IMG/VR virus record: IMGVR_UViG_3300036770_002544
Location: 10,654-74,653 of that record
Length of the DNA: 64,000 nucleotides
From: a virus
Taxonomy: Duplodnaviria; Heunggongvirae; Uroviricota; Caudoviricetes
Direction: 5' to 3' (one strand)
The stretch's first letter is position 1, and every line of letters starts with the position of its first letter. A program made the position numbers and the translations under genes. Shown piece after piece: positions 3,341-22,024 of the stretch. The notes beneath the pieces are model-generated. The model worked only from the letters and a program-made list of their open reading frames with translations. It was not told where the DNA came from and made no database searches.

Positions 3341-3381
3341 AATCGTATGCAGAGCATAAATACATGTAAGGAGTGCTCTGT

Positions 3382-3762: not shown

Positions 3763-3763
3763 C

Positions 3764-3828: not shown

Positions 3829-3834
3829 CCTGGT

Positions 3835-3930: not shown

Positions 3931-3943
3931 AGTGGGCCTTTTT

Positions 3944-4014: not shown

Positions 4015-4018
4015 TGCG

Positions 4019-4094: not shown

Positions 4095-4123
4095 GCCTCC
4101 ACCAAATAAGCAGATGACGTTTC

Positions 4124-4131
4124 TGCTCTTT
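4124..4131 (+). promoter_or_regulatory. TATAAATA box (T4-type late-promoter-like)
   Basis: tataaata lies 29 nt upstream of the 4160 ATG. A second copy sits at 2432-2439 upstream of a tRNA. Confidence 0.3.
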
Positions 4132-4159
4132 TGTATAAATAAAACAAAGGAGATCGAGC

Positions 4160-4546
4160 ATGAACGTTAATCAAAAGGGCAACATAGGCTTGCTAAAAGT
4201 CATAGGAGACTTGTATAATAAAGGCTACACAGTGTTTAAGCCTTTTGACGATTACAATCCAGTTGACTGTATTGCGATGAACGCAGAAGGCAAGACATTT
4301 AGATTACAGGTGAAGTATCGCAGTCCCGATCGAGATGACTCGTACGAGATTTCTGCTTCATCTATGGTAAATGGTAAGAGAGCACAAATTAACCGCGGAC
4401 TCATTGATTATTGGGCTGTATACCTGTCAGATTTAGACCAGGTAGTGTACATGCCGATAAGTATGATGGAAGGTAAAAAAGTTCACTACATTACCAGAAA
4501 ACAATTAGGTGAGATGGATGAGAGGTTGAAATCGGCACCCTGCTAA
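4160..4546 (+). CDS. hypothetical protein (possible small PD-(D/E)xK-like nuclease)
   Basis: RBS aaggagatcgagcATG. The 3' end overlaps the 5' half of tRNA-Ser by about 38 nt. Confidence 0.5.
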   Translation: MNVNQKGNIGLLKVIGDLYNKGYTVFKPFDDYNPVDCIAMNAEGKTFRLQVKYRSPDRDDSYEISASSMVNGKRAQINRGLIDYWAVYLSDLDQVVYMPISMMEGKKVHYITRKQLGEMDERLKSAPC

Positions 4547-4599
4547 GGTGTTTTCTTAGGAAACTAGGGACGTGGGTTCGAATCCCACTCTCACCACCA
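4508..4599 (+). tRNA. tRNA-Ser(GCT), class II
   Basis: Acceptor ggtgaga/tctcacc. Anticodon arm gcacc-CTGCTAA-ggtgt. Long variable arm. T-arm gtggg-TTCGAAT-cccac. aCCA. Confidence 0.8.
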
Positions 4600-4629
4600 A
4601 TTCGAAGTCTAGCAAACTTCAAAGTTTTC

Positions 4630-4703
4630 GCCCCTGTAGTTAAATGGTAGAACATCGGTTTTGTAATCCGAGGACGGGAGTTCGATTCTCTCTAGGGGCA
4701 CCA
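4630..4703 (+). tRNA. tRNA-Thr(TGT)
   Basis: Acceptor gcccctg/taggggc. D-arm gtt-aaatggtag-aac. Anticodon loop TTTGTAA. T-arm gggag-TTCGATT-ctctc. aCCA. Confidence 0.7.
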
Positions 4704-4710
4704 AATTTAT

Positions 4711-4786
4711 TCCTCAGTAGCTCAGTTGGTAGAGTAGCGGACTGTTAATCCGTTGGTCGCTGGATCGTGCCCAGCCTGGGGAGCCA
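4711..4786 (+). tRNA. tRNA-Asn(GTT)
   Basis: Acceptor tcctcag/ctgggga. D-arm tagctcagttggtagagta. Anticodon arm gcgga-CTGTTAA-tccgt. T-arm gctgg-ATCGTGC-ccagc. gCCA. Confidence 0.85.
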
Positions 4787-4794
4787 AACAAAAT

Positions 4795-4870
<76 letters not shown>

Positions 4871-4876
4871 GGATCA

Positions 4877-5909
4877 GATGTATACTCTAGACTTTTGCGA
4901 AGTTTATATCACTAATGTATGCAATTTAAATTGCACTCATTGTAATCGTTTTAATAATTTTGCTTTTGCAGGACACTCGCGGTGGGAAGATTACCAGCAC
5001 GATTACCAGCAATGGGCAAAAAAAGTAAATTTTAACAGTATCAGTATCCTTGGTGGAGAACCGTTATCCAACCCTGATTTTTTAAATTGGATGCATGGTA
5101 TTGCCACCGTGTGGAACAGTGCAGAAATATCTATTCTCACCAATGGGACACAGTTAGATAGATGGCCCAGTTTGTACAAAGAAATAAAAAAATACAACGG
5201 TCGTGTCACTGTTGTTATAAGCGAACATAGTCCGCAGCACTGGCTTGATGCCATTGGCAATGTAAAAAATTTTTTGCAAGGAACAATAGAAAATCAGGAA
5301 CATAAAACTTGGAAACAGTCTTATGATTCGATCAAAGATTCGTCATGGCCCGACTGCAATACCCCTGATGATTTTTATACCTTGCCTGAGCACATTCAAA
5401 CCGAATGTCAAACAGTGTTTAACATACACCCAACAAACAATGAATTTTCAGCCACCAGCGAGCGTGTTCATTTTTACAAAGACTCTAACAATGTAAAAAT
5501 TCTACTAGAGCCAAGTTGGATGTTTAAACCTAATGCATTGATATACCAAAGCACAAATCAAATTGATTTATACAACAGTGATCCAGAAAAAGCAATAAAA
5601 GCATGCACCATGAAAAAATGTCCGCAGTTCAGTCGCGGCAAACTTTACAAGTGCCCGCCGGTGACTGTGCTAGGTGATTTCATACAGCAATTCTCAATCA
5701 ATGTGTCTGACGCTGATAAGCAACTGATAGATGCGTATAAGCCTGCGTCACACTGTTGGCCTGATGATCAACTTAAGAAATTTTTAGATGATTTAACAGA
5801 TTTAAAAACAATCCCACAATGCAAGTTTTGTCCAGAAGAACTTCCATTTATTAAGTTTTCAGCTGGGACTAAAAAAATCAAACTGTTAAAAAAACAAAAC
5901 TTATCATAA
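4877..5909 (+). CDS. radical SAM protein with C-terminal Cys-rich (SPASM/twitch-like) region
   Basis: CNLNCTHC Cx3Cx2C at residues about 15-22. Extra Cys pairs near the C-terminus (CTMKKCPQF, CKFCPE). The table ORF 4767 start runs through tRNAs; the true start is taken as ATG 4877. Confidence 0.7.
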
Positions 5910-5913
5910 AAAA

Positions 5914-5989
<76 letters not shown>

Positions 5990-6038
5990 AACAAGCCTAC
6001 ACTCAATCCTGCCGCGATGACAGTCCCTGGGCTTTTAC

Positions 6039-6117
6039 ACCACTTTAGCTCAGTTGGACTTAGAGCACTGTGCTACGAACGCAGGGGTCGGGAGTTCGAA
6101 TCTCTCAGGTGGTACCA
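6039..6117 (+). tRNA. tRNA-Arg(ACG)
   Basis: Acceptor accactt/aggtggt. D-arm gctc/gagc. Anticodon arm ctgtg-CTACGAA-cgcag. T-arm gggag-TTCGAAT-ctctc. aCCA. Confidence 0.85.
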
Positions 6118-6242
6118 TTTTGTAATACTTGTGTTTGCCAAAAAGGTAAACCAAAGTATACATTTTTCGGGGCTCGGACGTTTTACAGCGATTCTTTTCT
6201 GCAGAACGTACAAAGATCCACAAGCAAGTAAAACAACAGCAA

Positions 6243-6271
6243 TTGACTCAAAATGACATCTGTTGTATAAT
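6243..6271 (+). promoter_or_regulatory. sigma70-type promoter (TTGACT-N17-TATAAT)
   Basis: ttgactcaaaatgacatctgttgtataat, upstream of the tRNA-Lys pair. Confidence 0.5.
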
Positions 6272-6379
6272 ACATTTTTAATTAGGAACATTGACATGAA
6301 ACGTTCAGCGAAACGATAGTGTCGTCTCAGTACCCTGTATGGTCTGGGATGGCACGTAAAAGACAATTTTTACATCCAT

Positions 6380-6454
6380 CCCTTTGAGATGTTAAGGCAG
6401 CATGCCGGACTCTTAATCCGTGACGTGTGGGTTCGACTCCCACCAGAGGGACCA
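6380..6454 (+). tRNA. tRNA-Lys(CTT)
   Basis: Acceptor ccctttg/cagaggg with G:U pairs. Anticodon loop CTCTTAA. T-arm gtggg-TTCGACT-cccac. aCCA. Confidence 0.7.
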
Positions 6455-6458
6455 TATA

Positions 6459-6535
6459 GGGTTGATAGTTTAATGGCTAAAACATCCGGCTTTTAACCGG
6501 TAAGAGTCAGGGTTCGAATCCCTGTCGACCCACCA
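6459..6535 (+). tRNA. tRNA-Lys(TTT)
   Basis: Acceptor gggttga/tcgaccc. Anticodon arm ccgg-CTTTTAA-ccgg. T-arm caggg-TTCGAAT-ccctg. aCCA. Confidence 0.85.
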
Positions 6536-6668
6536 TATAAAAACATTTTTGACGGGCATCATCGCCAACGCATAGTCGCGGTGCTCTGTTCGGTGACCCT
6601 GGCAGGTTGCGAAAATCTATTGTGCCAGCAATAAGAGAATTATTGAAAATGTTTCTATATGGTATTAT

Positions 6669-6743
6669 GGAGTCGTTAGTTTAGTGGTAAAACCGCGGGT
6701 TGTGATTCCGCTATCACGGGTTCGATTCCCGTACTTCTCCCCA
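6669..6743 (+). tRNA. tRNA-His(GTG) with G-1
   Basis: Anticodon arm gcggg-TTGTGAT-tccgc. D-arm gtt-tagtggtaa-aac. T-arm acggg-TTCGATT-cccgt. 3' end acttctc-c-CCA with an extra 5' G. Two internal acceptor mismatches. Confidence 0.65.
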
Positions 6744-6744
6744 A

Positions 6745-6819
6745 GGTGATATGACGTAGACGGATGCGTAGCGGTTTCATAAGCCGACGAGGTTGGGTCG
6801 GTACCAACTATCACCACCA
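6745..6819 (+). tRNA. tRNA-Met(CAT)-like with non-canonical T-loop
   Basis: Perfect acceptor ggtgata/tatcacc. Anticodon loop TTCATAA. T-arm gttgg-GTCGGTA-ccaac lacks TTC. aCCA. Confidence 0.55.
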
Positions 6820-6820
6820 C

Positions 6821-6895
6821 CGGTCCTTATTTCAATGGATAGAATGCCATGCTTCGAACTTGGCGATGTGGGTTCGATTCCTGCAGGACCGGCCA
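6821..6895 (+). tRNA. tRNA-Arg(TCG), anticodon assignment tentative
   Basis: Perfect acceptor cggtcct/aggaccg. Anticodon loop CTTCGAA. T-arm gtggg-TTCGATT-cctgc. gCCA. Confidence 0.55.
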
Positions 6896-6938
6896 AATGA
6901 TTTGTTAGTGCTGTATATGAACGAATAAATATTTTTTT

Positions 6939-7703
6939 ATGACTATTACTAAATTCACTACTGCACAACAACAGCTTTTGAAATTTGTATTAACGTGTGT
7001 CTCTTCTGTGCTGGGTATCTATGTATACCTAATACTAGGCGGCACCTTACTCAAGGCATTTCTGATATATCTATGTTTTGTATTAGTATCTAGAGTTGCA
7101 AACCTAGGTTATCATAGATGGCTGGCACACAACTTGTTAGAACCTGATTTGTTTGGTAGAATTTTTATACTATGGTGTATGGTAAGTTCGGCGTTAGTGA
7201 AGCCTTTGCCCTATGTCATAGGTCATAGACTGCATCACAAATATTCAGACACTGATAAAGATCCTCATCATCCCGGACTAGGGTTATGGGCTTGCTTGAT
7301 AGGAAACTTTAATGTCGTTGAAAACTTAACAATACCAGTAAAAGATTTGTATAGAAAAAAAGAAGTAATGTTTGTCAATAGATATTACTATCAATTATAT
7401 CTTGCAAACTTGCTATTGTTTTGGTTCATTGACAAAGATATAGTGCTACTAAGTTTCTCACTGTTAAACTTGCGTATGTGGGTCAACATAACTGTGTTCA
7501 ACTATCTTGCACACGGAGGTAAGCACGGAAAATCTCCTAAAAATTTGCCAGCCTGGACTAGTTACGTGTTAGGATATTCGGGAGAACAGTTACACAAAAA
7601 TCATCATGATGATCCTTCGTCTAGCGATTTTGGTAAATTGTCAAGATGGAATTTTGATATCATGTACAAAGTGTACAGCAAAATAGTCAAAGTTAAAAAT
7701 TAA
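6939..7703 (+). CDS. membrane fatty-acid (acyl-lipid) desaturase, delta-9-like
   Basis: Three His boxes HRWLAH, HRLHH, HKNHH. Multiple hydrophobic segments. Confidence 0.8.
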   Translation: MTITKFTTAQQQLLKFVLTCVSSVLGIYVYLILGGTLLKAFLIYLCFVLVSRVANLGYHRWLAHNLLEPDLFGRIFILWCMVSSALVKPLPYVIGHRLHHKYSDTDKDPHHPGLGLWACLIGNFNVVENLTIPVKDLYRKKEVMFVNRYYYQLYLANLLLFWFIDKDIVLLSFSLLNLRMWVNITVFNYLAHGGKHGKSPKNLPAWTSYVLGYSGEQLHKNHHDDPSSSDFGKLSRWNFDIMYKVYSKIVKVKN

Positions 7704-7752
7704 CACTCGGTGATTTCTGTACTACTATTAATCATAGTGTAGGTTATCATCT

Positions 7753-7781
7753 AGTTGACAACAAAACAATCTGCTGTTATA
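7753..7781 (+). promoter_or_regulatory. sigma70-type promoter (TTGACA-N17-TATACT) with palindrome over the -10
   Basis: ttgacaacaaaacaatctgctgttatact. gctgt-tatacta-cagc inverted repeat. Upstream of tRNA-Val. Confidence 0.5.
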
Positions 7782-7818
7782 CTACAGCATGTTCTTTAAA
7801 AATTAAGTTTGATAGTTT

Positions 7819-7903
7819 GCCCCTGTAGCTCAGTGGTAGAGCATCGCTTCGACAAAGCGAGGGTCGGTGGATCGTTCCCACCCAGTGGTACCAGTGTTAT
7901 TTA
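7819..7903 (+). tRNA. tRNA-Val(GAC)
   Basis: D-arm gctc-agtggtag-agc. Anticodon arm tcgct-TCGACAA-agcga. T-arm ggtgg-ATCGTTC-ccacc. cagtggt-a-CCA. Confidence 0.75.
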
Positions 7904-8088
7904 CACTGAGAATCTATCCAGGCCAGTGCCGACATCATGTTGGTAAAATAGCGCATGGTAAGTTTTTCATCGTAAATATCATTGACAAAGATGTAACAAG
8001 CGTCAGCAGTGTCGTTAACTGATAGGTGTATATGCATGTATCCGTTGGCAACTATGAAGTCTCGTGTTTGCATATTTTTATTTATTTT

Positions 8089-8162
8089 GCGGGATTGGCA
8101 TAAGGGTTGTGCAGTAGCCTTCCAAGCTACCCATAGCGGTTCGAGACCGCTATCCCGCTCCA
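8089..8162 (+). tRNA. tRNA-Gly(TCC)
   Basis: Perfect acceptor gcgggat/atcccgc. Anticodon arm gtagc-CTTCCAA-gctac. T-arm agcgg-TTCGAGA-ccgct. tCCA. Confidence 0.8.
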
Positions 8163-8169
8163 CAATTTA

Positions 8170-8244
8170 GGGTGATTAGCTCAGCGGTAGAGTCGCTGCC
8201 TTACACGCAGTTTGTCGGGAGTTCGATCCTCTCATCACCCACCA
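8170..8244 (+). tRNA. tRNA-Val(TAC)
   Basis: Acceptor gggtgat/atcaccc. D-arm gctc-agcggtag-agt. Anticodon arm gctgc-CTTACAC-gcagt. T-arm cggga-GTTCGAT-cctct. aCCA. Confidence 0.85.
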
Positions 8245-8252
8245 ACTTATTT

Positions 8253-8330
8253 CCGAGTGTAGCGCAGTCTGGTTAGCGCATCTGCTTTGGGAGCAGAGGG
8301 TCGTAGGTTCGAATCCTACTACTCGGACCA
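8253..8330 (+). tRNA. tRNA-Pro(TGG)
   Basis: Acceptor ccgagtg/tactcgg. D-arm gcgc-agtctggtta-gcgc. Anticodon arm tctgc-TTTGGGA-gcaga. T-arm gtagg-TTCGAAT-cctac. aCCA. Confidence 0.85.
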
Positions 8331-8337
8331 ATTCAAT

Positions 8338-8415
8338 GTACAGGTGGCAGAGTGGCCCAATGCAAGGGATTGCAAATCCCTAAAGCCGTCGGTTCAAATC
8401 CGACCCTGTACTCCA
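8338..8415 (+). tRNA. tRNA-Cys(GCA)
   Basis: Acceptor gtacagg/cctgtac. Anticodon arm aggga-TTGCAAA-tccct. T-arm gtcgg-TTCAAAT-ccgac. tCCA. Confidence 0.8.
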
Positions 8416-8420
8416 TCTAA

Positions 8421-8510
8421 GGAAGCGTGGTCGAGTGGTCTATGGCTCCGGTCTTGAAAACCGGCGATTACGAAAGTGGTCCGTGAGTTCGAATCTCACC
8501 GCTTCCACCA
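8421..8510 (+). tRNA. tRNA-Ser(TGA), class II
   Basis: Acceptor ggaagcg/cgcttcc. Anticodon arm ccggt-CTTGAAA-accgg. Long variable arm. T-arm gtgag-TTCGAAT-ctcac. aCCA. Confidence 0.85.
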
Positions 8511-8515
8511 TATAT

Positions 8516-8591
8516 GCCGCGGTAGCTCATCAGGTAGAGCAGCAGACTGAAAATCTGTGTGTGGCTGGTTCGAGTCCAGCTCGTGGCACCA
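8516..8591 (+). tRNA. tRNA-Phe(GAA)
   Basis: Acceptor gccgcgg/tcgtggc. D-arm tagctcatcaggtagagca. Anticodon arm gcaga-CTGAAAA-tctgt. T-arm ctggt-TCGAGTC-cagc. aCCA. Confidence 0.85.
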
Positions 8592-8592
8592 A

Positions 8593-9234
8593 TCAATGTC
8601 TATTAGGATCTCGAGTTTTTTCAAACTCTGGCACATGTTCGTTGCAACCAGGAAACCATGCTGGGGCAGGTGGAAGATCACACACTTCTCTAGTGAGATC
8701 TATCAACAAAATGAGACGCCGCTCTGAAGTGTTGTTCCAAACACTATGCAACTTTTGATTGTTGAAAGAAAAGACATCATCCCATAGTACAATTTCGTTT
8801 TCAACTTCGAAACCAATGTCGCCATCAGGAACGTACAAAGGAATATGGATGCGAATGCTTTTGGCATCTCTGTTTTCTATGCCAGTGTGTCTGTAAATAA
8901 TAGAGTTGGGTTCTACAATACTGTAACCAGCTAGGTGGCAGTGTTGTCCAAAAGCTTCAACTAATGAAAATGCAGTGGGATACCGAAGTCTATTGGATTC
9001 TGCAAGAACTCCTGATATATGTTTGATGCCTGATATTTTCCAGGCATTTTCTTTATCGTACAAGGTAGAATTTTGTCCAGTAGGATTTTGACGGTAAGGC
9101 ACGCTAGTAAATTTTTCTCCCGACTGGAAGTCTGGGTGCGCTTTGACAAAGTCTGCAAGTAAAGCAGGTTGTAACGCTCTAAACAATGCAGCAAATTTAA
9201 CTTCGTCGCCGCGATAGATATTTTTAAGTTCCAT
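8593..9234 (-). CDS. aspartyl/asparaginyl beta-hydroxylase-family (AspH-like, 2OG-Fe oxygenase cupin) protein
   Basis: Motif HTGIENRDAKSIRIHIPL matches the AspH H-x-G...N...R-x-H-x-PL signature. Paralog of 10868-11545. Confidence 0.6.
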   Translation of the reverse strand: MELKNIYRGDEVKFAALFRALQPALLADFVKAHPDFQSGEKFTSVPYRQNPTGQNSTLYDKENAWKISGIKHISGVLAESNRLRYPTAFSLVEAFGQHCHLAGYSIVEPNSIIYRHTGIENRDAKSIRIHIPLYVPDGDIGFEVENEIVLWDDVFSFNNQKLHSVWNNTSERRLILLIDLTREVCDLPPAPAWFPGCNEHVPEFEKTRDPNRH

Positions 9235-9291
9235 AGATACTTTCTTTAAAAATATTTATTGATCGTTATGGTACATTTATAATTTAACATT

Positions 9292-9366
9292 GTCCCTGTA
9301 GTTCAATGGATAGAACCGGTTCCTCCTAAGAACAAAATATCAGTTCGATTCTGGTCAGGGATACCA
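9292..9366 (+). tRNA. tRNA-Arg(CCT)
   Basis: Acceptor gtccctg/cagggat. D-arm gttcaatggatagaac. Anticodon loop CTCCTAA. T-arm atcag-TTCGATT-ctggt. aCCA. Confidence 0.75.
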
Positions 9367-9371
9367 AGCAT

Positions 9372-9448
9372 GCCCTGGTGGTGGAATTGGCAGACACACT
9401 GCGTTGAGGTCGCAGGTTCTACGGGTTCGAGTCCCGTCTAGGGTACCA
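9372..9448 (+). tRNA. tRNA with anticodon GAG (Leu-decoding) but short variable loop
   Basis: Acceptor gccctgg/ctagggt. Anticodon arm ctgcg-TTGAGGT-cgcag. T-arm acggg-TTCGAGT-cccgt. aCCA. At 77 nt it lacks the class II long arm expected of bacterial tRNA-Leu. Confidence 0.65.
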
Positions 9449-9802
9449 AGTTTTGTAGTAACCAGAGTCCTGTGTAAAAGGTGTTGCGGACGTCATGCGC
9501 TCTTTTTATCGCATGGGTCAATAAAGATCGAAGCGCAAACTAATAAGGTTGTGTCCTTGCCTACTACAGATTAGTTTTGCAAACAATAAAAACGTGTAGG
9601 GGTAATACCCCTTGAAGCTCTGTGCAGAGATGCACATCTTCTATGGATCAGTTGGTGGGATGAGAGGTCCTTCCCTGTTGCCGGTGTCAAGAGTTATCCA
9701 TTGTGGGAGCCGGAGTGCCAACCCAGGTCGATAGTTTACAGCCACACGCCCTAGCGAAACCGGATTGTTTGCAATTTTTTATTGTTGTTGAGAAGAAAAG
9801 AA

Positions 9803-10018
9803 ATGTATAAAATAGCAGAAAAAGAATTTGCCAATCTGGAGTTGGCAATGGCACATGCCAGGCAGTTAAATGAGTTTGTAACTATTGCTGGACCCGACTT
9901 TGAAGTTTGTGGCCGCTTTGGGGTAGATAGCGTTGAACGCGGGCTGTGCCCTGATGGTATTGCATACGATTGGAACAAGGCCAGTCGTACAGGTCGCGTA
10001 CAACGCGAACGAGTCTAA
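9803..10018 (+). CDS. hypothetical small protein
   Basis: ORF following a roughly 330-nt structured noncoding stretch. Weak RBS. Confidence 0.3.
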   Translation: MYKIAEKEFANLELAMAHARQLNEFVTIAGPDFEVCGRFGVDSVERGLCPDGIAYDWNKASRTGRVQRERV

Positions 10019-10108
10019 CGGAGGGTTAACTGGGCTGGGCCCAGCACTGTCTCGAAAACAGATGGACTGTGAAAACGGTTGGAGTTCGATTCTGCCATCC
10101 CTCTTCCA
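10019..10108 (+). tRNA. tRNA-like element (Ser CGA-type loop) with non-canonical T-arm
   Basis: Acceptor ggagggt/tccctct-t-CCA. Hairpin ctgt-CTCGAAA-acag. D region ctggg-ctgggc-cccag. The T-arm does not fold canonically. Confidence 0.3.
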
Positions 10109-10113
10109 ATTTT

Positions 10114-10184
10114 TGGCTCACTCTAGCTGATCTTGCGGGGTCCAAACTCTCAAGTCTCGGGTGCGATTCCTGAAGGGCCAGCCA
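10114..10184 (+). tRNA. tRNA-like element (acceptor plus T-arm only clearly foldable)
   Basis: Acceptor tggctca/agggcca-g-CCA. T-arm tcggg-TGCGATT-cctga. No clear anticodon arm. Confidence 0.3.
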
Positions 10185-10241
10185 TATACCGGTTTACACA
10201 AAACCGTAATATCAAGTATAATATATACTTGTGCAACCAAT

Positions 10242-10318
10242 GCCCCTGTGATGGAATTGGTATACGTGTCGGATTCAAAATCCGAATTTTGCGGGTTCGA
10301 GTCCCGCTGGGGGCACCA
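10242..10318 (+). tRNA. tRNA with anticodon CAA (Leu-decoding), short variable loop
   Basis: Acceptor gcccctg/tgggggc with G:U pairs. Anticodon arm tcgga-TTCAAAA-tccga. T-arm gcggg-TTCGAGT-cccgc. aCCA. Confidence 0.6.
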
Positions 10319-10333
10319 TTTTATAGAAAGACC

Positions 10334-10807
10334 ATGATGAAGAAAATCGATCTAGAACAAGTACGCCAGTTTATTGAAGCACAAACACCAGAAACAAAAA
10401 TCTATCTGGGTTGTGACTCCGAACGTCTGCGTGTCGACGGCCGTTGGTATGCCGATTATATTCTAGCGATTGTTGTTCACATCAATGGCAACAACGGTTG
10501 TAAGATTTTCGGCGAAGTACATCGTGAACCGGTGTGGGATGCCAAGCCAGGCAAGCCAAGTATGCGTCTTATGACCGAAGTGTACAAAGTCAGCGAACTG
10601 TATCTCAAGTTAGCAGAAGTGTTAGAAGGTCGACAAGTCGAAGTTCACTTGGACATCAACCCCGACGAACACTATGGATCAAGCTGTGTTATTAGCCAAG
10701 CTGTGGGCTACATCAAAGGCACTTGCAACGTGGTTCCGTTCGTCAAGCCACATGCGTTTGCTGCTAGTTATGCTGCTGACCGATTCAAGGGTTTGAGAGC
10801 AGCCTAA
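10334..10807 (+). CDS. hypothetical protein
   Basis: ATG immediately after the tRNA. The table ORF 10133 start runs through the tRNA, so the internal Met start MMKKIDLEQ is taken. Followed by a strong terminator. Confidence 0.5.
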   Translation: MMKKIDLEQVRQFIEAQTPETKIYLGCDSERLRVDGRWYADYILAIVVHINGNNGCKIFGEVHREPVWDAKPGKPSMRLMTEVYKVSELYLKLAEVLEGRQVEVHLDINPDEHYGSSCVISQAVGYIKGTCNVVPFVKPHAFAASYAADRFKGLRAA

Positions 10808-10867: not shown

Positions 10868-11545
10868 TTATTGCTGACAACTATGTAACATCTTGGGCAG
10901 TTGTCCTCGTACAAAATCTGGTACATGTTGATACCGAGTTACATCAGTTTTTATTCCCGGTTCAAGCCCCAGCACATCACGATGAAGGTCTAGCAAGTAG
11001 ACCAATCTGCGATGATCAGTATAATTGTATGCACTGTGTATGAACTGATTGTCAAACGCAAACAAATCTGACCAATCAATCTCTACGCCTTCAACTTCAA
11101 AGAAAATATCGCCAGGTGGCACTATCAACGGTATGTGTATTCTCACATACAGTCCATCTCTGTTTTCTACGCCGGTATGTCGTGAAATCACTGCATTATG
11201 CTCTAAGATACTGTAGGTGCTAACTGGGCAGGCATCGCCATATTTTTCAGTTAGTGCAACTGCTGTGGGGAAACGTTCTCGAATATCGTTGTGTTTGGTC
11301 TTGTCTATGACCAAATTGTGTCGAGGATTGGTATATTTTAATGGATCAACTTTCCAAGCATCGGGCCTGCTTTTGTAAGGATCGGTACTGAATATTGGGT
11401 TTTGATATGGGACACCTTTGGCAAAGTCGCCTTGAACAAAGTCAGTGTGGTAGGCCAAAAACTCTTCTAGTAGTTTAGGTGCTAGGGCTAGTAACTCGTC
11501 GGCTATTGGGATTTCTTCTCGGAGCCATATAGATTTTCTTGTCAT
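10868..11545 (-). CDS. aspartyl/asparaginyl beta-hydroxylase-family protein (paralog)
   Basis: HTGVENRDGLYVRIHIPL motif. Roughly 45 percent identical by eye to the 8593-9234 product. Confidence 0.6.
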   Translation of the reverse strand: MTRKSIWLREEIPIADELLALAPKLLEEFLAYHTDFVQGDFAKGVPYQNPIFSTDPYKSRPDAWKVDPLKYTNPRHNLVIDKTKHNDIRERFPTAVALTEKYGDACPVSTYSILEHNAVISRHTGVENRDGLYVRIHIPLIVPPGDIFFEVEGVEIDWSDLFAFDNQFIHSAYNYTDHRRLVYLLDLHRDVLGLEPGIKTDVTRYQHVPDFVRGQLPKMLHSCQQ

Positions 11546-11613
11546 AAAAATATTTACTCTAGTAATTCCGTGCGGAACAAAAATCAGTTGTGCAAATCGA
11601 GGTATATAAAGTT

Positions 11614-12165
11614 ATGCCTAACTGTTTTGAAATTCAACTTGCACTTCCGGTGTTGTTTGACCCCAGGCCATATGACACTGATCTAAGTCCTGCACCTTAT
11701 TACATTGATCCTGGGTCGGAGTTTGTTGTATGGTTGCATAGTCTTGGATTAGAAATAACAAAAGCTGGTGCGGAACAGTTCTATACTCCACCTGGCGGAA
11801 CCATTCCTGTTCACATCGACGGTAGAAATTTTGACAACAAAGTGAAGTTAAACTTTCAACGTGGGGGAAAAGGTAGCACCATGCGATGGTACCAGTTAAA
11901 CAACGCCAATTCAACCATGAACTCAAAAAATGGAGATTTTGGTGAGTTTTTTATGATACAACCGGAGCAGGTAACACAGACATGGCAAGCAGAAATTGGA
12001 TCCCCTAGTTTGATCAATGCAGGAATCTTACACAATGTTGTTAACGGCCCTGAACCCAGATGGGTTGTGAGTGTACCTTTATGGGATGTGACTGCTAATC
12101 AAAACTTACAATGGCATACTGCAGTAGATAAATTTCAACAATGGATTGTTCAAAAACATGATTGA
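11614..12165 (+). CDS. hypothetical protein
   Basis: ORF, with a possible GTG start at 11590. Its stop overlaps the next start (ATGATTGA). Confidence 0.45.
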   Translation: MPNCFEIQLALPVLFDPRPYDTDLSPAPYYIDPGSEFVVWLHSLGLEITKAGAEQFYTPPGGTIPVHIDGRNFDNKVKLNFQRGGKGSTMRWYQLNNANSTMNSKNGDFGEFFMIQPEQVTQTWQAEIGSPSLINAGILHNVVNGPEPRWVVSVPLWDVTANQNLQWHTAVDKFQQWIVQKHD

Positions 12166-12985
12166 CGTCGACCTAACAGATTTAAAAACAAGAGGTTTTG
12201 CGGTTGTAAAGAATTTTCTAACCGACTTGGAAATTAAACCACAATTACAAAATTACGAGATTCAAAAAAACAATCAATCGTCCCAAATCAAAATAAAAAA
12301 TTACTCTGTGATCAAAGCAAGCACTGAGCATAATTTAACTGACAAAATTAAACGTTTACTTGACAAAGTTGCTCAACAAACAGACATATCTATAAATCTT
12401 GTGGGACCAACAGGTGTGTATTTTGACACACAACTAGTAAATACTGGATGGCATCAAGACCATTTATCTTATTATACTTGGCAAACAGGCTACCATCAGA
12501 TAAACTTTTGGATACCTTTGATCAAGCCGTGCCCAACCATGTCAGGGCTTTGCGTGGTTCCAATGGATACGTTAAAAACACACATAGGCGATTTGTTCGA
12601 ACAACACATATTGGATCAAGGTGCAAAGAGATTTATACCAACAGACAACCGTACTCATGTGATTGACGACGACTCCGGACATGAGTTTGAGTTACCAGTT
12701 AATCTCAATGATATTGCAGTGGCTCCAGAACTGCAAGCAGGTGATTTGCTGATAGTCAGAGGAGATGTAATACATACTACCCAGGATTCTGACACCAATC
12801 GTGTTGCCCTTGCAATAAGAGCAGTAGACGGAAACAAGGCAGTTGATCGAACAAAGTTTCAACAGCAGTGCAACATGAAAAAAATGTTGCTCGACGCTGA
12901 TTCGGGCACTAAAAAAATTAACAATTACTTTGCTGCTGGACACAATCAGTTTGTCATACACGACCTTTATAGAGGACGTATTTGA
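12158..12985 (+). CDS. phytanoyl-CoA dioxygenase (PhyH)-family 2OG-Fe(II) oxygenase
   Basis: GWHQDHLSY motif, and a distal His in GDVIHTTQDS. Confidence 0.65.
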   Translation: MIDVDLTDLKTRGFAVVKNFLTDLEIKPQLQNYEIQKNNQSSQIKIKNYSVIKASTEHNLTDKIKRLLDKVAQQTDISINLVGPTGVYFDTQLVNTGWHQDHLSYYTWQTGYHQINFWIPLIKPCPTMSGLCVVPMDTLKTHIGDLFEQHILDQGAKRFIPTDNRTHVIDDDSGHEFELPVNLNDIAVAPELQAGDLLIVRGDVIHTTQDSDTNRVALAIRAVDGNKAVDRTKFQQQCNMKKMLLDADSGTKKINNYFAAGHNQFVIHDLYRGRI

Positions 12986-13031
12986 CCTGGCGTACTACAA
13001 TTTAAAACATATACCTAGGAGTTGCTAGTTA

Positions 13032-13331
13032 ATGATTGGAATTGACTTAGTTGATGTTCGTAGATTTGAGGCAACAACAAGACTGCCTCAATTTATCAAA
13101 CGATTCCATGTTAGTGGGGACTCGCCACTGGATGTAGCAAAAACTTGGGCATGTTTGGAAGCCATTATCAAAGCAGAAGATCAACCGTTTGACCCAACAA
13201 GTATTAGTATTCAATTTGTCGCAGGACAACGACCGCAAGTCAATGATCCGCACAATATACTAAGCAAGCCGTATATACTAAGTCTGAGCCATGATGCAGA
13301 TCTGGTCATCGCAGTAGCATTGCGGACTTGA
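13032..13331 (+). CDS. acpS: holo-ACP synthase-like 4'-phosphopantetheinyl transferase
   Basis: N-terminal MIGIDLVDVRRFE and LSLSHDADLVIAVAL resemble AcpS signatures. SD aggag 8 nt upstream. Confidence 0.6.
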   Translation: MIGIDLVDVRRFEATTRLPQFIKRFHVSGDSPLDVAKTWACLEAIIKAEDQPFDPTSISIQFVAGQRPQVNDPHNILSKPYILSLSHDADLVIAVALRT

Positions 13332-13356
13332 CAAGTGTTGTATTTTTTGTTATACT
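13328..13356 (+). promoter_or_regulatory. sigma70-type promoter (TTGACA-N17-TATACT)
   Basis: ttgacaagtgttgtattttttgttatact. Shares the TATACTACA box with promoters 7753 and 19741. Confidence 0.5.
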
Positions 13357-13378: not shown

Positions 13379-13699
13379 ATGAGCAACGATCTAGCAAAAT
13401 TCTTAAACAGCCGCAGGCGCCATAAAACTGACGTAGCAATTGCCCGGCAAGTTAAAATTGCCAAGAGTCACGGCTTGGGATTTAACGACAAACACATTAA
13501 AGAACCACATCGGCATGCTAAACATCATGCTATGGACTGCGGTAACCCACAATGTGGACTATGCGGCAATCCACGACATGTTCGCAAAGGTGGTTCAGGT
13601 GGTGGCGGACTAACTGTACAAGAACGTCGACAGCATCAAGATCTTGAACGCACCACCGATCGACACTCAAACGGCATTAAACCAAAGGACTCAGAATGA
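13379..13699 (+). CDS. hypothetical basic Cys/His-rich protein
   Basis: ORF with SD aaaaggtgctaaATG. Gly-rich linker GGSGGGG. Confidence 0.45.
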   Translation: MSNDLAKFLNSRRRHKTDVAIARQVKIAKSHGLGFNDKHIKEPHRHAKHHAMDCGNPQCGLCGNPRHVRKGGSGGGGLTVQERRQHQDLERTTDRHSNGIKPKDSE

Positions 13700-13968
13700 A
13701 AATTAACCCCAAAGACCCTACCATTGGCCTTTCAAATCAAGCCGCTGTTGACGCAATCGGCAACCGTTACGATCTAGTTTTGATTGCTGCTCGTCGAGTG
13801 CGAGAACTGCATCGCGGTGATGCTCGTAAGGTAGACGAGCACCGATGCGGTGCTACATTAACTGCACTGCTAGAAATTGAAGAAGGCAAAGTAGGTCGTG
13901 ACTATTTGTACAAAGAAACCGACGTTGAGACTCGCCGAACAAGAAAACATCGTACTAGTACTTTGTAA
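13696..13968 (+). CDS. rpoZ: RNA polymerase omega subunit (RpoZ)-like protein
   Basis: AVDAIGNRYDLVLIAARRVRELHRGD...TLTALLEIEEGKV parallels E. coli RpoZ ([23 protein letters not shown]...IALREIEEGLI). Confidence 0.5.
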   Translation: MKINPKDPTIGLSNQAAVDAIGNRYDLVLIAARRVRELHRGDARKVDEHRCGATLTALLEIEEGKVGRDYLYKETDVETRRTRKHRTSTL

Positions 13969-13981: not shown

Positions 13982-14010
13982 TTGCCCAAAATCTCCTGAT
14001 GTGCTATAAT
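13982..14010 (+). promoter_or_regulatory. sigma70-type promoter (TTGCCC-N17-TATAAT) embedded in an inverted repeat
   Basis: ttgcccaaaatctcctgatgtgctataat. The inverted repeat aaaatctcct / aggagatttt spans the -10 and the SD. Confidence 0.55.
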
Positions 14011-14260: not shown

Positions 14261-14674
14261 ATGCCCTGGATTCAGAACGTTAGCATGAGCGATGTCAAGC
14301 AAGGCTTGCACTTCGACGCCGGTGTTAACAGTATGCTGATCCAAATTGTTGATCCGGCATACGAGTTTCCCGTTCCGTTGAAGAAGTTCAAGGAAGTACA
14401 CCAGTTTGAGTTCTTGGACGTTGAGGCAACGGATAAGGAATTTGAGGAGTTTGCTTGCACACAAGAGCAGGCTGCAGAACTTGTTCGCTTGCTCAAGCAT
14501 GCATTGTCTAATCGTATGAACGTTGTAGTTCACTGCCACGCCGGTATTTGCCGATCGGGTGCAGTCTGCGAAGTGGGTACTATGATGGGGTTCGATGATA
14601 CAGAAGTGTTTCGTGCGCCTAATCTGTTGGTCAAGCATTTGATGATGAAGCAATTAGGATGGACTTATGAATAA
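14261..14674 (+). CDS. protein tyrosine / dual-specificity phosphatase
   Basis: CX5R active-site motif VVHCHAGICRSGAV. SD aaggaaataacATG. Confidence 0.7.
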   Translation: MPWIQNVSMSDVKQGLHFDAGVNSMLIQIVDPAYEFPVPLKKFKEVHQFEFLDVEATDKEFEEFACTQEQAAELVRLLKHALSNRMNVVVHCHAGICRSGAVCEVGTMMGFDDTEVFRAPNLLVKHLMMKQLGWTYE

Positions 14675-14975
14675 AGTAATTCGGGATGGAATGGTTGCAG
14701 TGCTGTACTCTCCCGAACACGGTGCAGGCTGGTGGACCTGGAATACCGAGCACACAGATATGTTGTTTGACCCGGGCATGGTTGGCCTAGTTGAAAAGTA
14801 CGATGTTGAGCAGATGCGTGTTTATGCAGAACTCAAGTGGCCCGATGCTTACTTAGGTGGATTGGACAGCCTACAAATCGAGTGGCTCCCAGAAGGCTCA
14901 AAGTTTATTGTAGAAGAATACGATGGGTTTGAAAGTATTCTTACTATCGAGAACACTGTTTGGATAACAGCATGA
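14667..14975 (+). CDS. hypothetical protein (C-terminus ESIL...W resembles the downstream array family)
   Basis: ATGA start/stop overlap with both neighbours. Confidence 0.45.
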   Translation: MNKVIRDGMVAVLYSPEHGAGWWTWNTEHTDMLFDPGMVGLVEKYDVEQMRVYAELKWPDAYLGGLDSLQIEWLPEGSKFIVEEYDGFESILTIENTVWITA

Positions 14976-15136
14976 AAAACCCTTTGCAGTGGCAATACAA
15001 TGGTGCGGCGCCAATGCAAGTACTCATAGCCTGGTGTGAGCAACACATTCCCGATGAGTATGTTTATCACGGTTGGGAAAGTATTTTGTTTCTAACTGAA
15101 CGTGCAAAGACATTATTTTTGCTGAGGTGGTCATGA
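14972..15136 (+). CDS. LRWS-family small protein, array member 0 (54 aa, below the ORF-track cutoff)
   Basis: Hand translation MKNPLQWQYNGAAPMQVLIAWCEQHIPDEYVYHGWESILFLTERAKTLFLLRWS. ATGA overlap upstream; TGAGGTGGTCATGA junction downstream. Confidence 0.5.
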   Translation: MKNPLQWQYNGAAPMQVLIAWCEQHIPDEYVYHGWESILFLTERAKTLFLLRWS

Positions 15137-15372
15137 AACCCTGTGAACTACAACCAATGATAGTCCGAGCCGTGGAAAGAATAGGAATAAATGATTATTG
15201 GCAACTTCCTCCGGAAGCAAGAGTAATTACCGGCAATCCTAAATATGACGCACAACTTCATTATATGTTAGTTGAGTTTGGGGTGGAAGTAGAGTTAGAT
15301 CGATACGGCATGAAAGATTACCGTGTAGTTGATGAACAAAAATTCATGATGTTTTTGTTGAGGTGGTCATGA
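15133..15372 (+). CDS. LRWS-family small protein, array member 1
   Basis: Ends ...EQKFMMFLLRWS. Junction tgaggtggtcATGa. Confidence 0.6.
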   Translation: MKPCELQPMIVRAVERIGINDYWQLPPEARVITGNPKYDAQLHYMLVEFGVEVELDRYGMKDYRVVDEQKFMMFLLRWS

Positions 15373-15581
15373 CAGCACAATACAGTCGTAGCCGAGATCT
15401 TGTTCATCGTGTGGAAGTGCCACATTCGGGTGGTTGGGTCTGGGGCGAGGATCAAAGGTTTGAATGGTGCAAACAGAACTGCCAGGACGATTATCGTGGC
15501 GCAATGTTTCGCCGAGACCGAACTGTGTGGCATTTTAAATCACAGAAGGATGCTGTGATGTTTGCGCTGAGGTGGTCATGA
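15369..15581 (+). CDS. LRWS-family small protein, array member 2
   Basis: Ends ...QKDAVMFALRWS. Identical junction. Confidence 0.6.
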   Translation: MTAQYSRSRDLVHRVEVPHSGGWVWGEDQRFEWCKQNCQDDYRGAMFRRDRTVWHFKSQKDAVMFALRWS

Positions 15582-15817
15582 CAATACCCGAACATTACAA
15601 CCATCGAGTACAAGTAAAGTTAAAATTGCGAGACATCTTTGAACTTGAACATAGACTCGAGGAATTAAATTATATCCGCGCTTGGTTAGACGAATTAGTA
15701 GAATGGCAACCGGATGCGTTTACGATAAAATATTATGATCGAGGAAATGGTGCTGTAATCGATGTTTGGTTTGCCGATGAACGACATGCTATGATTTGTG
15801 CGTTGAGGTGGTCATGA
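15578..15817 (+). CDS. LRWS-family small protein, array member 3
   Basis: Ends ...ERHAMICALRWS. Identical junction. Confidence 0.6.
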   Translation: MTIPEHYNHRVQVKLKLRDIFELEHRLEELNYIRAWLDELVEWQPDAFTIKYYDRGNGAVIDVWFADERHAMICALRWS

Positions 15818-16014
15818 AATACTGGAACAAAGACAAACGGATTCGCCAGCAGAACTGGTATGCAGTCCCATCGGGTAACAGGCGGCCCTATGCTGACACC
15901 AAACGCGAGTTACAACTATTTGACAGTCCGGGTAAGTTTTATCTATACTACGGCAGTAGCACTATTTGGTTTGAGCGTGAACAAGATGCATTGTGGTGGA
16001 GATTGAAATCATGA
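15814..16014 (+). CDS. LRWS-family small protein, array member 4
   Basis: Ends ...EQDALWWRLKS. ATGA overlap. Confidence 0.55.
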   Translation: MKYWNKDKRIRQQNWYAVPSGNRRPYADTKRELQLFDSPGKFYLYYGSSTIWFEREQDALWWRLKS

Positions 16015-16199
16015 AAGTTTATCAAGTTGCAGGTTATCCAAAGAATCATTATTTTGTCAAAGACTTTCAAGAGTTATTGAACATAATGAGTTGGATGACC
16101 AAGAACGATGTAGGTTACTTGCACGAATCTAGCAGCATACATGGCTATGGGTTTAGTGTTAAAAAGAATTTTGAATGGTTTAGTTTGAAGTGGTTATGA
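16011..16199 (+). CDS. LRWS-family small protein, array member 5
   Basis: Ends ...KNFEWFSLKWL. ATGA overlap. Confidence 0.55.
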   Translation: MKVYQVAGYPKNHYFVKDFQELLNIMSWMTKNDVGYLHESSSIHGYGFSVKKNFEWFSLKWL

Positions 16200-16405
16200 G
16201 TTACGAAGTTGTAATACCGTATGATCCTGCTTGGGAACCACTAGACTGGGCCAAGGAACATTGTCCTAGTTATATTACAAACCGAGCAATTGCTCAAGAA
16301 ACAAAATATGATATAATAGTTCGTGCGTACTATAACGATTACGATGTTGTCTATTATTTCAGCGAAGGAAAGGATGCAACAGCGTTTGCATTGAAGTGGA
16401 AATGA
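16196..16405 (+). CDS. LRWS-family small protein, array member 6
   Basis: Ends ...GKDATAFALKWK. ATGA overlap. Confidence 0.55.
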   Translation: MSYEVVIPYDPAWEPLDWAKEHCPSYITNRAIAQETKYDIIVRAYYNDYDVVYYFSEGKDATAFALKWK

Positions 16406-16670: not shown

Positions 16671-16699
16671 TTGCCCAAAAAGCAGTTTTCTGCTATAAT
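16671..16699 (+). promoter_or_regulatory. sigma70-type promoter (TTGCCC-N17-TATAAT)
   Basis: ttgcccaaaaagcagttttctgctataat. SD aaaggagg follows. Confidence 0.55.
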
Positions 16700-19740: not shown

Positions 19741-19769
19741 TTGACATGTAGATGTCTTTACTGTAGAAT
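19741..19769 (+). promoter_or_regulatory. sigma70-type promoter (TTGACA-N17-TAGAAT) with palindrome
   Basis: ttgacatgtagatgtctttactgtagaat. ctgtag-aatatac-tacag inverted repeat over the -10. Confidence 0.5.
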
Positions 19770-19842
19770 ATACTACAGAACGCCTGCCGTATGCAGAGTT
19801 CTTCTGCAAGCTAATACAACCATAATATTTTTAGGAATTAAC

Positions 19843-20811
19843 ATGATTCGATCATTCTCACGCCTGGTTGCGTTTGCGCTAGCCAGTATTGCTATCACTT
19901 CTGCTAATGCAGAAGTCTACCCTTCAAAACCCATCAATATCGTTGTGCCATACAACGCTGGCGGCGGTATGGATAACGTTATCCGTAAAATGACCACCGA
20001 ATTAGAAAAGGAACTTGGGCAGCCAGTTACTGTTGTAAATCAAGCAGGAGCTGGTGGTAATGTTGGCACTCGTAAACTTGCTGAATCTGCCCCTGATGGT
20101 TATACCATTGGTATGAGCGGTGGCTCTACGTTTGGCACTAATCAGGTATTCAACAAAGAAGTACCATATGATGCAGGCAAACAATTTGAGTTTGTTAGCA
20201 TGGTTGGTACTTTGCCACGTATTGTTGTGGTCAGTGCTGCAGGCCCAATTAAAACAATCGACGACCTAAAGAAAGAAGCACTAACTAATCCCAAGTTTAC
20301 AATGGCGGCTGCACTCAACAGTCCAGACATCTTGATGGGTGAAATTTTCAAACACAAAATGCTAGGCAAGCCAGTTATTGCCAGTTACGGTGCAGCAACT
20401 AACACCATGATGGTCGATTTGGTTGGTGGCCGTATTCATGCAGTATGGAACAGCGTTCCAGCATTGAATGCTTGCTTGACTAACAATACCTGTGTAGCAC
20501 TTGCAGTTACTGGCAAACAACGTCTCAAAGGCTTGCCCAATGTCCCAACCTTTGCCGAAGTGGGTCTTGCTGAAGTAGATGCTCCTGCTTACTATGGCAT
20601 CGTTACACCCAAAGGTGTTGCTGCTGACAAGATTGCCAAACTAAACCGTGCGTTTAACCGTGTAATTCAAAATGAAAAAGTTGCCAGCGATCTTGATAAA
20701 ATGGGTGTGGTTACTATTGTGAGTTCTCCTGCCGAAACCAAAGAACAACACTTACAAGGTATTGCTAATGCCAAGAAGTATGCCGCAGTGGCAAACATTG
20801 TGGCAAAATAA
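19843..20811 (+). CDS. TctC-family (tripartite tricarboxylate transporter) periplasmic substrate-binding protein with signal peptide
   Basis: Signal peptide MIRSFSRLVAFALASIAITSANA. Typical Bug/TctC-like region YPSKPINIVVPYNAGGGMDNVIR. Confidence 0.65.
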   Translation: MIRSFSRLVAFALASIAITSANAEVYPSKPINIVVPYNAGGGMDNVIRKMTTELEKELGQPVTVVNQAGAGGNVGTRKLAESAPDGYTIGMSGGSTFGTNQVFNKEVPYDAGKQFEFVSMVGTLPRIVVVSAAGPIKTIDDLKKEALTNPKFTMAAALNSPDILMGEIFKHKMLGKPVIASYGAATNTMMVDLVGGRIHAVWNSVPALNACLTNNTCVALAVTGKQRLKGLPNVPTFAEVGLAEVDAPAYYGIVTPKGVAADKIAKLNRAFNRVIQNEKVASDLDKMGVVTIVSSPAETKEQHLQGIANAKKYAAVANIVAK

Positions 20812-21433: not shown

Positions 21434-22024
21434 ATGTTTTACACAATATTAGATTGTCCTCCTTTGCCAGTTGAGTTTGAGCAAGAAGTTATTGCAACAG
21501 TAAGGGGCACAGAACGACTTAAAGTTAAAACGTTCAAAGATGCCCCAGGTCGCAAAGAATATAGAGAACGTATAGTAACCATGCCCGATGGCAGTCGATG
21601 CACTAGCGTCACTAGTCAAAAGTGGTCAATTAGTGCAGAACTTGAGCAGTGGATTCGAGACAATGTCTACAACGGGCCATGGGTAGATGTTGGTATTAAC
21701 AGCCATAATACTGTCAGCAACGTAATGGGACCACATGTCGACGATATTAAAAACGAAATTATTCTTTATGTTGTTGAAACTGGCGGGGACAATGTAGAGA
21801 CTGCTTGGTGGCAGGAACAAGGCTTTCCTGTAGAGAGACCAGACAAACTGCCAGCAAACAACAACGGCGAATTCTATACCAGCACAGACGACTACAGCAA
21901 GCTCGTTGAACTTGAGCGTGTGTGTTTGCCCACTGGTAAATGGGTACGCATGAACACCTTGGTATTACACAGTGTTGAAAATATCACTGGTGTAAGAACC
22001 ATTGTCAAGATTGGGTTAGACTAA
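21434..22024 (+). CDS. hypothetical protein (paralog A)
   Basis: C-terminus ...WVRMNTLVLHSVENITGVRT parallels the next gene. Confidence 0.45.
   Translation: MFYTILDCPPLPVEFEQEVIATVRGTERLKVKTFKDAPGRKEYRERIVTMPDGSRCTSVTSQKWSISAELEQWIRDNVYNGPWVDVGINSHNTVSNVMGPHVDDIKNEIILYVVETGGDNVETAWWQEQGFPVERPDKLPANNNGEFYTSTDDYSKLVELERVCLPTGKWVRMNTLVLHSVENITGVRTIVKIGLD

Follow-up and report, generated by a model that had tools for sequence, protein, structure and literature searches.

What could a large phage do with an enzyme that charges carrier proteins, and which carrier would it charge? The question is raised by ORF 13032..13331 in a 64,000-nucleotide stretch of viral DNA (here called the window, meaning the whole 64 kb that was analysed). 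A first-pass annotation, made from the letters alone, had read this ORF as a phosphopantetheinyl transferase (PPTase) of the AcpS type, saw no carrier protein nearby, and proposed as substrate either a host acyl carrier protein (ACP) or an unrecognised small carrier among the many small ORFs.

The ORF and its assignment to the AcpS type

The gene and the signal in front of its start are:

13032..13331, + strand: PPTase gene, ATG start, 99 aa, compact AcpS-type 4'-phosphopantetheinyl transferase
13017..13021, + strand: Shine-Dalgarno-like AGGAG, 10 nt before the ATG, as read from the sequence

Our analysis found the ORF on the + strand as had been described, and its 99-aa translation, MIGIDLVDVRRFEATTRLPQFIKRFHVSGDSPLDVAKTWACLEAIIKAEDQPFDPTSISIQFVAGQRPQVNDPHNILSKPYILSLSHDADLVIAVALRT, agrees with the N- and C-terminal strings quoted in that description. 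In GC content (42.7 %) and GC3 (0.31) the gene is like its neighbours, which marks it as resident and not recently imported. A large protein collection contained 77 homologues of 99–115 aa with 41–100 % identity to the window protein, and an alignment of 34 homologues has 21 invariant columns, the catalytic residues among them. The ORF is therefore not a chance ORF.

The Pfam ACPS profile matched the window protein over its full length (profile positions 2–111 of 111) with 22.5 bits against a cut-off of 25 (E 1.2e-4), and the NCBIfam holo-ACP synthase model matched it with E 1.5e-6 and 28.6 bits against a cut-off of 107. Thirty-two of the 34 family members matched Pfam ACPS individually (E<=0.01). 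When a profile of the 34 homologues was compared with the PDB, Helicobacter pylori AcpS (5xuk) was matched from end to end with E 4e-6, while the match to B. subtilis AcpS was weaker. The window protein also scored 74 bits against a broad AcpS profile, whose 137 representatives came from a search with the family profile and belong only in a minority to the family of the window protein. Neither the PHROGs search nor the single-sequence PDB search with the window protein gave a match.

The AlphaFold2 model, a single-chain prediction built on the family alignment, is a single alpha/beta domain with pLDDT 95.5 and pTM 0.88. Foldseek against the PDB returned 65 matches at E<=1e-3 with TM up to 0.81, the best 50 of which were all AcpS-type PPTases or the fungal FAS PPT domain; TM was 0.81 to 5xuk and 0.79 to 1f80. 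PPTases of the Sfp type (group II) are pseudo-dimers of about 230 aa made up of two PPTase half-domains, and the window protein has 99 aa and one domain. The matches of the family members and the profile, the fold of the model and the score against the broad AcpS profile together settle the AcpS identity. By sequence and predicted fold, then, the ORF is a group I (AcpS) PPTase and no Sfp-type enzyme. The first-pass assignment was right in this respect: the HMM match is below threshold when taken alone, and the identity is clear by profile and fold.

HMM alignment paired the following residues of the window protein with those of B. subtilis AcpS; the roles are those known from the 1F7L/1F80 structures:

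D5: aligned to D8; Mg2+ ligand
R11: aligned to R14; helix-1 Arg that docks the ACP
E43: aligned to E58; Mg2+ ligand
K47: aligned to K62; catalytic Lys
P68: aligned to P87; conserved Pro
H87: aligned to H105; C-terminal His

In the 1F80 complex, R14 of B. subtilis AcpS docks acidic helix II of the ACP, and K62 is a catalytic or pyrophosphate-binding Lys. D5, R11, E43, K47 and H87 are invariant in the 34 family sequences. Since an ACPS HMM match was obtained and both Mg ligands, Asp D5 and Glu E43, are present and invariant, the PPTase reading stands.

There are also differences from B. subtilis AcpS. Two of its basic positions are changed in the window protein (R53 to T38 and K57 to L42), and about 16 residues, spread over four loops, are absent relative to AcpS. 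Together with the scores under the curated cut-offs and a length shorter than that of any characterised AcpS, the two substitutions could fit a non-catalytic look-alike which would sequester host ACP or CoA in a takeover or inhibitor role. However, D5, E43, K47 and H87 have stayed invariant across 41–100 % identity, which sequestration alone would not require; the length differs only in loops, and the model can be superposed on AcpS-CoA complexes. Relatives are paired with ACP genes of their own, as described below, which fits an activating enzyme. We consider the look-alike explanation scarcely credible.

A virus-restricted lineage and its carrier-linked relatives

A HMMER search over 1.84 billion representative proteins delimited the PPTase lineage at 14 representatives (E<=1e-10, at least 61 bits), below which a continuum of generic AcpS proteins began at 55 bits or less. 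The signature AKTWACLE was essentially absent from the genomes of 185,579 bacterial and archaeal species, surveyed with one genome per species, where a single weak partial match was found. A search of 50,697 deposited phage genomes yielded no member of the family. The few AcpS/Sfp matches that a divergent member found in deposited "phage" records were rejected; these records consist of several contigs, contain acpP and sfp as well and resemble host DNA. The window PPTase is thus part of a small lineage whose members come from viral or metagenomic contigs alone; ORFs of the family had already been labelled "phosphopantetheinyl transferase" by the JGI pipeline. The long contigs with family members are phage-like: they are of 63–348 kb and have tRNA arrays, ThyX, RNR and DNA ligase, along with an RNAP-omega-like gene and numerous small ORFs that overlap. 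The carriers of the lineage are probably large freshwater phages.

In a rough NJ tree, the window falls in a derived clade with L001-7, L010-20 and L145 (our labels for the loci), and this clade is ACP-less; all the ACP-linked PPTase loci are basal. These relatives supply what the first-pass annotation did not have, namely PPTase genes paired with a phage ACP and with desaturases. On the 96.7-kb contig L008/9, whose PPTase is 43 % identical, only about 10 nt separate the stop codon of the PPTase gene from a canonical ACP gene downstream (PF00550, containing …DLKGDSLDTVEM…). Two FA_desaturase genes lie upstream of the PPTase, and Asp_Arg_Hydrox, radical-SAM and 2OG genes lie beyond them. Directly adjoining PPTase-ACP pairs were also found in L021 and L022, and in the latter three desaturases are followed by the PPTase and then by the ACP. 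Asp_Arg_Hydrox homologues flank the pair in L008, L021 and L022. L029/30 and L031, which branch off deepest, have PP-binding ORFs above the Pfam cut-off at 1.5–2.2 kb from the PPTase.

L023 and L026/27 have an 87-aa ACP-like ORF (...KLDSIEF...) directly downstream of the PPTase. It gave hhalign E 0.06 with the Ser aligned and no Pfam match; its match to the custom carrier HMM is partly circular. The product of this ORF is a candidate carrier on sequence grounds. The idea that the L144 PPTase ends in what is left of a decayed ACP (…KSLDSIRLS) was discarded, as the tblastn matches were at chance level.

Of 21 distinct contexts, 10 have membrane desaturase homologues no more than 6.1 kb from the PPTase; among these 10 are the window and all 6 contexts with a directly adjacent carrier. 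In L004, an AMP-binding ligase is located 2 kb from the PPTase, with SDR/KR and BKACE as further neighbours. These neighbours, the L145 halogenase described below and the LpxO/OlsC-like hydroxylases of the window and L008 come from enzyme classes whose substrates are often lipids or are tethered to carriers. From gene order, the PPTase family appears to descend from a phage module of membrane desaturase(s), PPTase and ACP. The module is defined from the relatives; in the window the adjacent carrier gene is missing.

In L145 (ENA ERZ28594332 scaffold_608), a flavin-dependent (Trp-type) halogenase gene at 6876-8875 comes right after an FA desaturase gene, 1.1 kb upstream of the PPTase, and a ribosomal protein S21 gene is found at 15816-16046.

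The neighbourhood in the window and the search for a carrier

The features of the window that bear on the setting of the PPTase gene are:

6939..7703, + strand: membrane FA desaturase-like gene; Pfam FA_desaturase 26.5 bits, cut-off 29.7
10868..11545 and 8593..9234, - strand: LpxO/OlsC-like Asp/Arg-hydroxylase-type Fe/2OG oxygenases; Pfam Asp_Arg_Hydrox 55.8 and 62.1 bits
11590..12165, + strand: unknown protein of 191 aa, upstream of the PPTase, overlapping the next gene
12146..12985, + strand: PhyH-type Fe/2OG dioxygenase; PhyH 23 bits against a cut-off of 22, 46 nt before the PPTase
13328..13356, + strand: sigma-70-like promoter, TTGACA-17-TATACT with TG, 11/12 matches, by consensus match only, overlapping the PPTase stop

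The desaturase-like gene lies 5.3 kb upstream of the PPTase and is not adjacent to it. Its product is below the Pfam cut-off and matches an NCBIfam DesA-family model with E 3.5e-8, far below the cut-off of that model; its translation shows the His boxes HRWLAH, HRLHH and HKNHH. The two Asp_Arg_Hydrox genes also have distant NCBIfam LpxO and OlsC matches. PDB sequence searches with the products of 11590..12165 and 12146..12985 gave no match, nor did a PHROGs search with the PPTase neighbours.

The two upstream genes and the PPTase occur in the same order on the independent contig L007, and no strong promoter was found between the 11590..12985 genes and the PPTase. Judging from the sequence, the three genes probably form one transcription unit. 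The site at 13328..13356 would mark the putative start of the next unit. The PPTase gene thus probably ends a three-gene unit, since there is no strong promoter before it and a strong one over its stop codon. Further sigma-70-like sites with an extended -10 TG were seen at 13982-14010 and 16671-16699; with 13328-13356, they lie just upstream of the gene starts at 14033, 16725 and 13379, respectively. Sigma-70-like sites in the window, counted with a view to the early-type operon that the first-pass annotation named, were not enriched over shuffles (19 versus 16.3 +/- 3.9).

Our search for a carrier protein or PP-binding domain in all six frames of the window, with E. coli, B. subtilis and phage ACPs as queries, found none. 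An HMM of 64 viral ACPs, divergent ones included, gave a best E of 1.1 against the window ORFs, and Pfam over essentially all plausible window genes gave no PP-binding match. The earlier statement that no carrier is nearby therefore holds for the entire 64 kb, in which there is no ACP-like ORF; this absence applies to the window, that is, to 64 kb of a genome of maybe 200–350 kb.

The suggestion of a non-canonical carrier encoded by one of the small ORFs near the PPTase gene fared less well. Small unannotated ORFs are many here, one of them (14667..14975) carries the only carrier-like motif among the window ORFs (GLDSL), and the 87-aa Pfam-unrecognised type beside the PPTase in L023 and L026 indicates that divergent carriers may exist. 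But most of the 31 homologues of 14667..14975, the sole DSL candidate, have D, N, E or K in place of the motif Ser, and the protein has no HMM support and is not helical-bundle-like, so it was rejected as a hidden carrier. The genes immediately downstream of the PPTase, for a Cys-rich protein (13379..13699) and an omega-like protein, were rejected as partners as well, because they are core genes of the phage lineage at a variable distance from the PPTase, about 10 kb in L013 and L024. With these results, and with the failure of the divergent-carrier HMM and of Pfam to find a carrier, a small-ORF substrate is highly improbable.

Several other genes were noted around the PPTase. The region 13379-13968 encodes the Cys-rich protein, which is basic and has 106 aa (…HHAMDCGNPQCGLCGNPRH…), and then, with a 4-nt overlap, the RNA-polymerase omega/Rpb6-like protein (PF01192, 36.7 bits); both are conserved in the core of the lineage (L001-3, L004, L013, L024). 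A dual-specificity/Tyr-phosphatase-like gene at 14261-14674 has the CX5R motif HCHAGICRSG (Pfam Tc-R-P 28.7 bits) and is similar to an L004 gene at 1e-63. A tandem family of 7–8 small ORFs of 58–105 aa occupies 14960-16405 and 36189-36506. Its members end in hydrophobic-x-L-(R/K)-W-(S/K/L), have no Pfam or PHROG match, and overlap via the junction TGAGGTGGTCATGA (stop, then GTG start) at 15128, 15364, 15573 and 15809.

Three proteins of about 190–200 aa without database match (11590-12165, 21434-22024 and 22024-22629) show by eye an HxD…H pattern, with the instances PVHIDG…ILHNV, GPHVDD…LVLHSV and GAHCDF…ILHGV, which suggests that they may be further small cupin or 2OG-type oxygenases. With PhyH, TauD and three Asp_Arg_Hydrox genes near them, they lie in an oxygenase-rich island with unusually many such genes.

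The window has 26 tRNA genes, arrayed over 2455-10318 and mixed with protein genes for an HNH endonuclease (3373-3762), a PD-(D/E)XK nuclease (4160-4546), a radical SAM protein (4767-5909), the FA-desaturase-like protein (6939-7703) and one LpxO-like hydroxylase (8593-9234, - strand). Because tRNA-Leu at 10242-10318 lies inside ORF 10133-10807, the real RNaseH-like gene there starts near 10340.

A large biosynthetic-looking cluster covers 44371-61320 on the - strand and 36508-38524 on the + strand, with many unknowns without Pfam match. It includes a Nol-like carbamoyltransferase (44371-45849; 43 % identity to Ralstonia jumbo phage RsoM2USA) and five radical SAM/SPASM genes in a row (47182-55787), near which a sugar epimerase/dehydratase and a DegT aminotransferase are encoded. 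The cluster may encode a pathway that modifies glycans or nucleotide sugars. The gene at 38493-41087 (- strand) encodes an 864-aa protein with about five repeats of W(H/Q)PDPxDPPYxYxFG(N/T)QW...GGPxYTVPGATEVKYV and no PHROG match.

Probable substrate and comparison with known systems

The host is probably a betaproteobacterium. The clues are an AcpP-like ACP in a related contig (67–73 % identical to betaproteobacterial AcpP), a TctC/Bug-type gene, and the Ralstonia link of one window auxiliary gene, whose nearest deposited phage is the 344-kb Ralstonia phage RsoM2USA. The TctC/Bug-type binding proteins, with signal peptides, are parts of a tripartite tricarboxylate transporter and are encoded at 19741-20811 of the window and at 3104-3967 of L008; TctA is encoded at 11960-13264 of L001. 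Such transporter genes are unusual auxiliary cargo and hint at a betaproteobacterial host.

What the enzyme would do, on which substrate and to what end, we infer as follows. By homology, it would use Mg2+ (D5, E43), K47 and CoA and would attach the 4'-phosphopantetheine of CoA to a carrier of the ACP type at its conserved Ser, turning the apo- into the holo-carrier, with the ACP presumably docked via the invariant R11 of helix 1. In the clade of the window, where the ACP gene no longer lies beside the PPTase gene, the enzyme would act in trans on an AcpP-type ACP, be it that of the host or of the phage. Action in trans is the most likely mode because no ACP gene is present in the 64 kb examined, and the resident codon usage of the gene was counted toward its plausibility. 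Its purpose would be to keep acyl-carrier capacity for phage-directed lipid remodelling by the surrounding desaturase-, LpxO- and PhyH-like oxygenases, a role that is likely from the gene neighbourhood. Overall, we judge it probable that the ORF encodes an active, minimal AcpS-type PPTase of a virus-restricted lineage, and that the most likely target of this enzyme, reached in trans, is an ACP of the AcpP type.

As to which ACP this would be, the host protein proposed in the first-pass annotation is a live option, and we give host AcpP an even chance. The competing explanation is that the PPTase serves a dedicated phage ACP encoded elsewhere in the genome, outside the 64 kb, the module being dispersed and the host ACP irrelevant. 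The 102-kb contig L024 has just such an arrangement, in which 15 kb lie between the PPTase and a canonical ACP, and ACPs are also found in deposited betaproteobacterial jumbo phages (Burkholderia BCSR5, Achromobacter Motura and Ralstonia phages). The window is moreover partial: its own contig has 74.6 kb and relatives reach 348 kb (348,509 bp in KRAE22-1 scaffold_1, ENA ERZ28593699). A search for further copies of the window's own contig found a 3.1-kb Logan copy, none in IMG/VR, and a best match of 51 % identity among metagenome contigs. However, no carrier was found within +/-10 kb of the PPTase in any of 10 distinct derived-clade contexts, and derived-clade contigs of 140, 164 and 229 kb (3300047554_000527, 3300043438_000976 and 3300034117_001294) gave no ACP match in IMG/VR pattern scans, which are sensitive only to motif-bearing ACPs and gave the best 80 of 109 matches. 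Most of the 80 viral ACP loci listed have no PPTase of the window family within 3 kb. For these two reasons, the lack of ACP matches on the 140–229 kb contigs and the lack of a family PPTase near most phage ACPs, host AcpP was ranked slightly higher, and a phage ACP outside the window is a serious possibility that we hold to be somewhat less probable.

Deposited ACP-carrying phages gave no PPTase match by tblastn and evidently rely on host AcpS; therefore, host and phage components can be mixed. If the PPTase does use host ACP as its substrate, its gene would represent a novel type of auxiliary metabolic gene with the acyl-carrier pool as target.

A bolder reading, which we regard as speculative and rather unlikely, is that large freshwater phages carry a self-contained thiotemplated lipid module, and that in the clade of the window, which would have lost the ACP, the PPTase captures host apo-ACP or loads acyl-phosphopantetheine. 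If true, a private ACP, a minimal AcpS and desaturases or hydroxylases would make modified acyl chains on a phage-owned carrier, and acyl-phosphopantetheine loaded directly from acyl-CoA would bypass host fatty-acid synthesis. The phage PPTase would then be a host-takeover enzyme for the acyl-carrier pool and no housekeeping duplicate.

Returning to the minimal PPTase acting in trans, the analysis defines a compact virus-only AcpS lineage whose ancestral partners appear to be an ACP and membrane desaturases. This leads to the testable idea that some large phages bring their own carrier activation to re-tool host lipid metabolism. At 99 aa, the protein is among the smallest AcpS-like proteins found, and it could serve as a minimal PPTase for labelling or pathway engineering.

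The bacterial AcpS enzymes of known structure (5xuk, B. subtilis 1f7l/1f80 and S. coelicolor 2wdy) have the same single alpha/beta fold as the window model, with TM 0.73–0.81. They share with the window protein the Asp of GxD, a (W/F)AxKEAxxK-type helix with Glu and Lys, the helix-1 Arg and a C-terminal S-x-S/T-H motif. However, the window protein has 99 aa against 115–135 aa in bacterial AcpS and is at most 27 % identical to any solved AcpS. The invariant signature of its lineage, AAKTWACLEA, has Leu and Thr where B. subtilis AcpS has K57 and R53, and the lineage, unlike bacterial AcpS, occurs on viral or metagenomic contigs only and not in bacterial genomes.

Phage-encoded ACPs have been reported repeatedly (PMC7760394, PMC10152775, PMC13573597), and our literature search for phage AcpS or PPTase found no paper. 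The T4-like cyanophage MED4-213 (L154 in our set; NC_020845.1) has an ACP, CPMG_00087 (94737-95204), and a PPTase-domain protein, CPMG_00044 (UniProt M4QPY7; 71057-71515), about 23 kb apart, a pair known only from automatic annotation (UniProt/BFVD). Both are a "hypothetical protein" in RefSeq, and CPMG_00087 is a 155-aa ACP with N- and C-terminal extensions. CPMG_00044 differs from the window protein in having 152 aa and an Sfp-like "GVDIE...WCQKEAYTK" (Foldseek E 0.53 and TM 0.52 to the window model), and tblastn of the window family showed no similarity to MED4-213. MED4-213 is a marine cyanophage, whereas the window comes from a freshwater jumbo-type phage.

Membrane desaturases are known to act on ACP-tethered acyl chains in the polyyne "desaturase triad" of Burkholderia-type bacteria (PMC9828172) and in JamB/JamC (bioRxiv 10.1101/291195). 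The polyyne clusters cay/pgn combine a fatty acyl-AMP ligase and an ACP with three desaturases plus a thioesterase (PMC9828172), and JamA/JamB/JamC form a thiotemplated membrane-desaturase cassette (bioRxiv 10.1101/291195). Differences from the phage loci are evident: the bacterial cassettes are without an AcpS-type PPTase of their own, no phage locus examined has a full polyyne cassette, and the window is without ACP, AMP-binding ligase and thioesterase domains. The phage desaturases are only distantly DesA-like, and the window has one weak desaturase against the three of the polyyne cassettes. What the polyyne and Jam cassettes do have in common with the phage relatives L008 and L022 is FA_desaturase-family genes next to a dedicated ACP. 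They may thus serve, as an analogy only and with no membership implied, as a picture of how the ancestral phage module could have worked.
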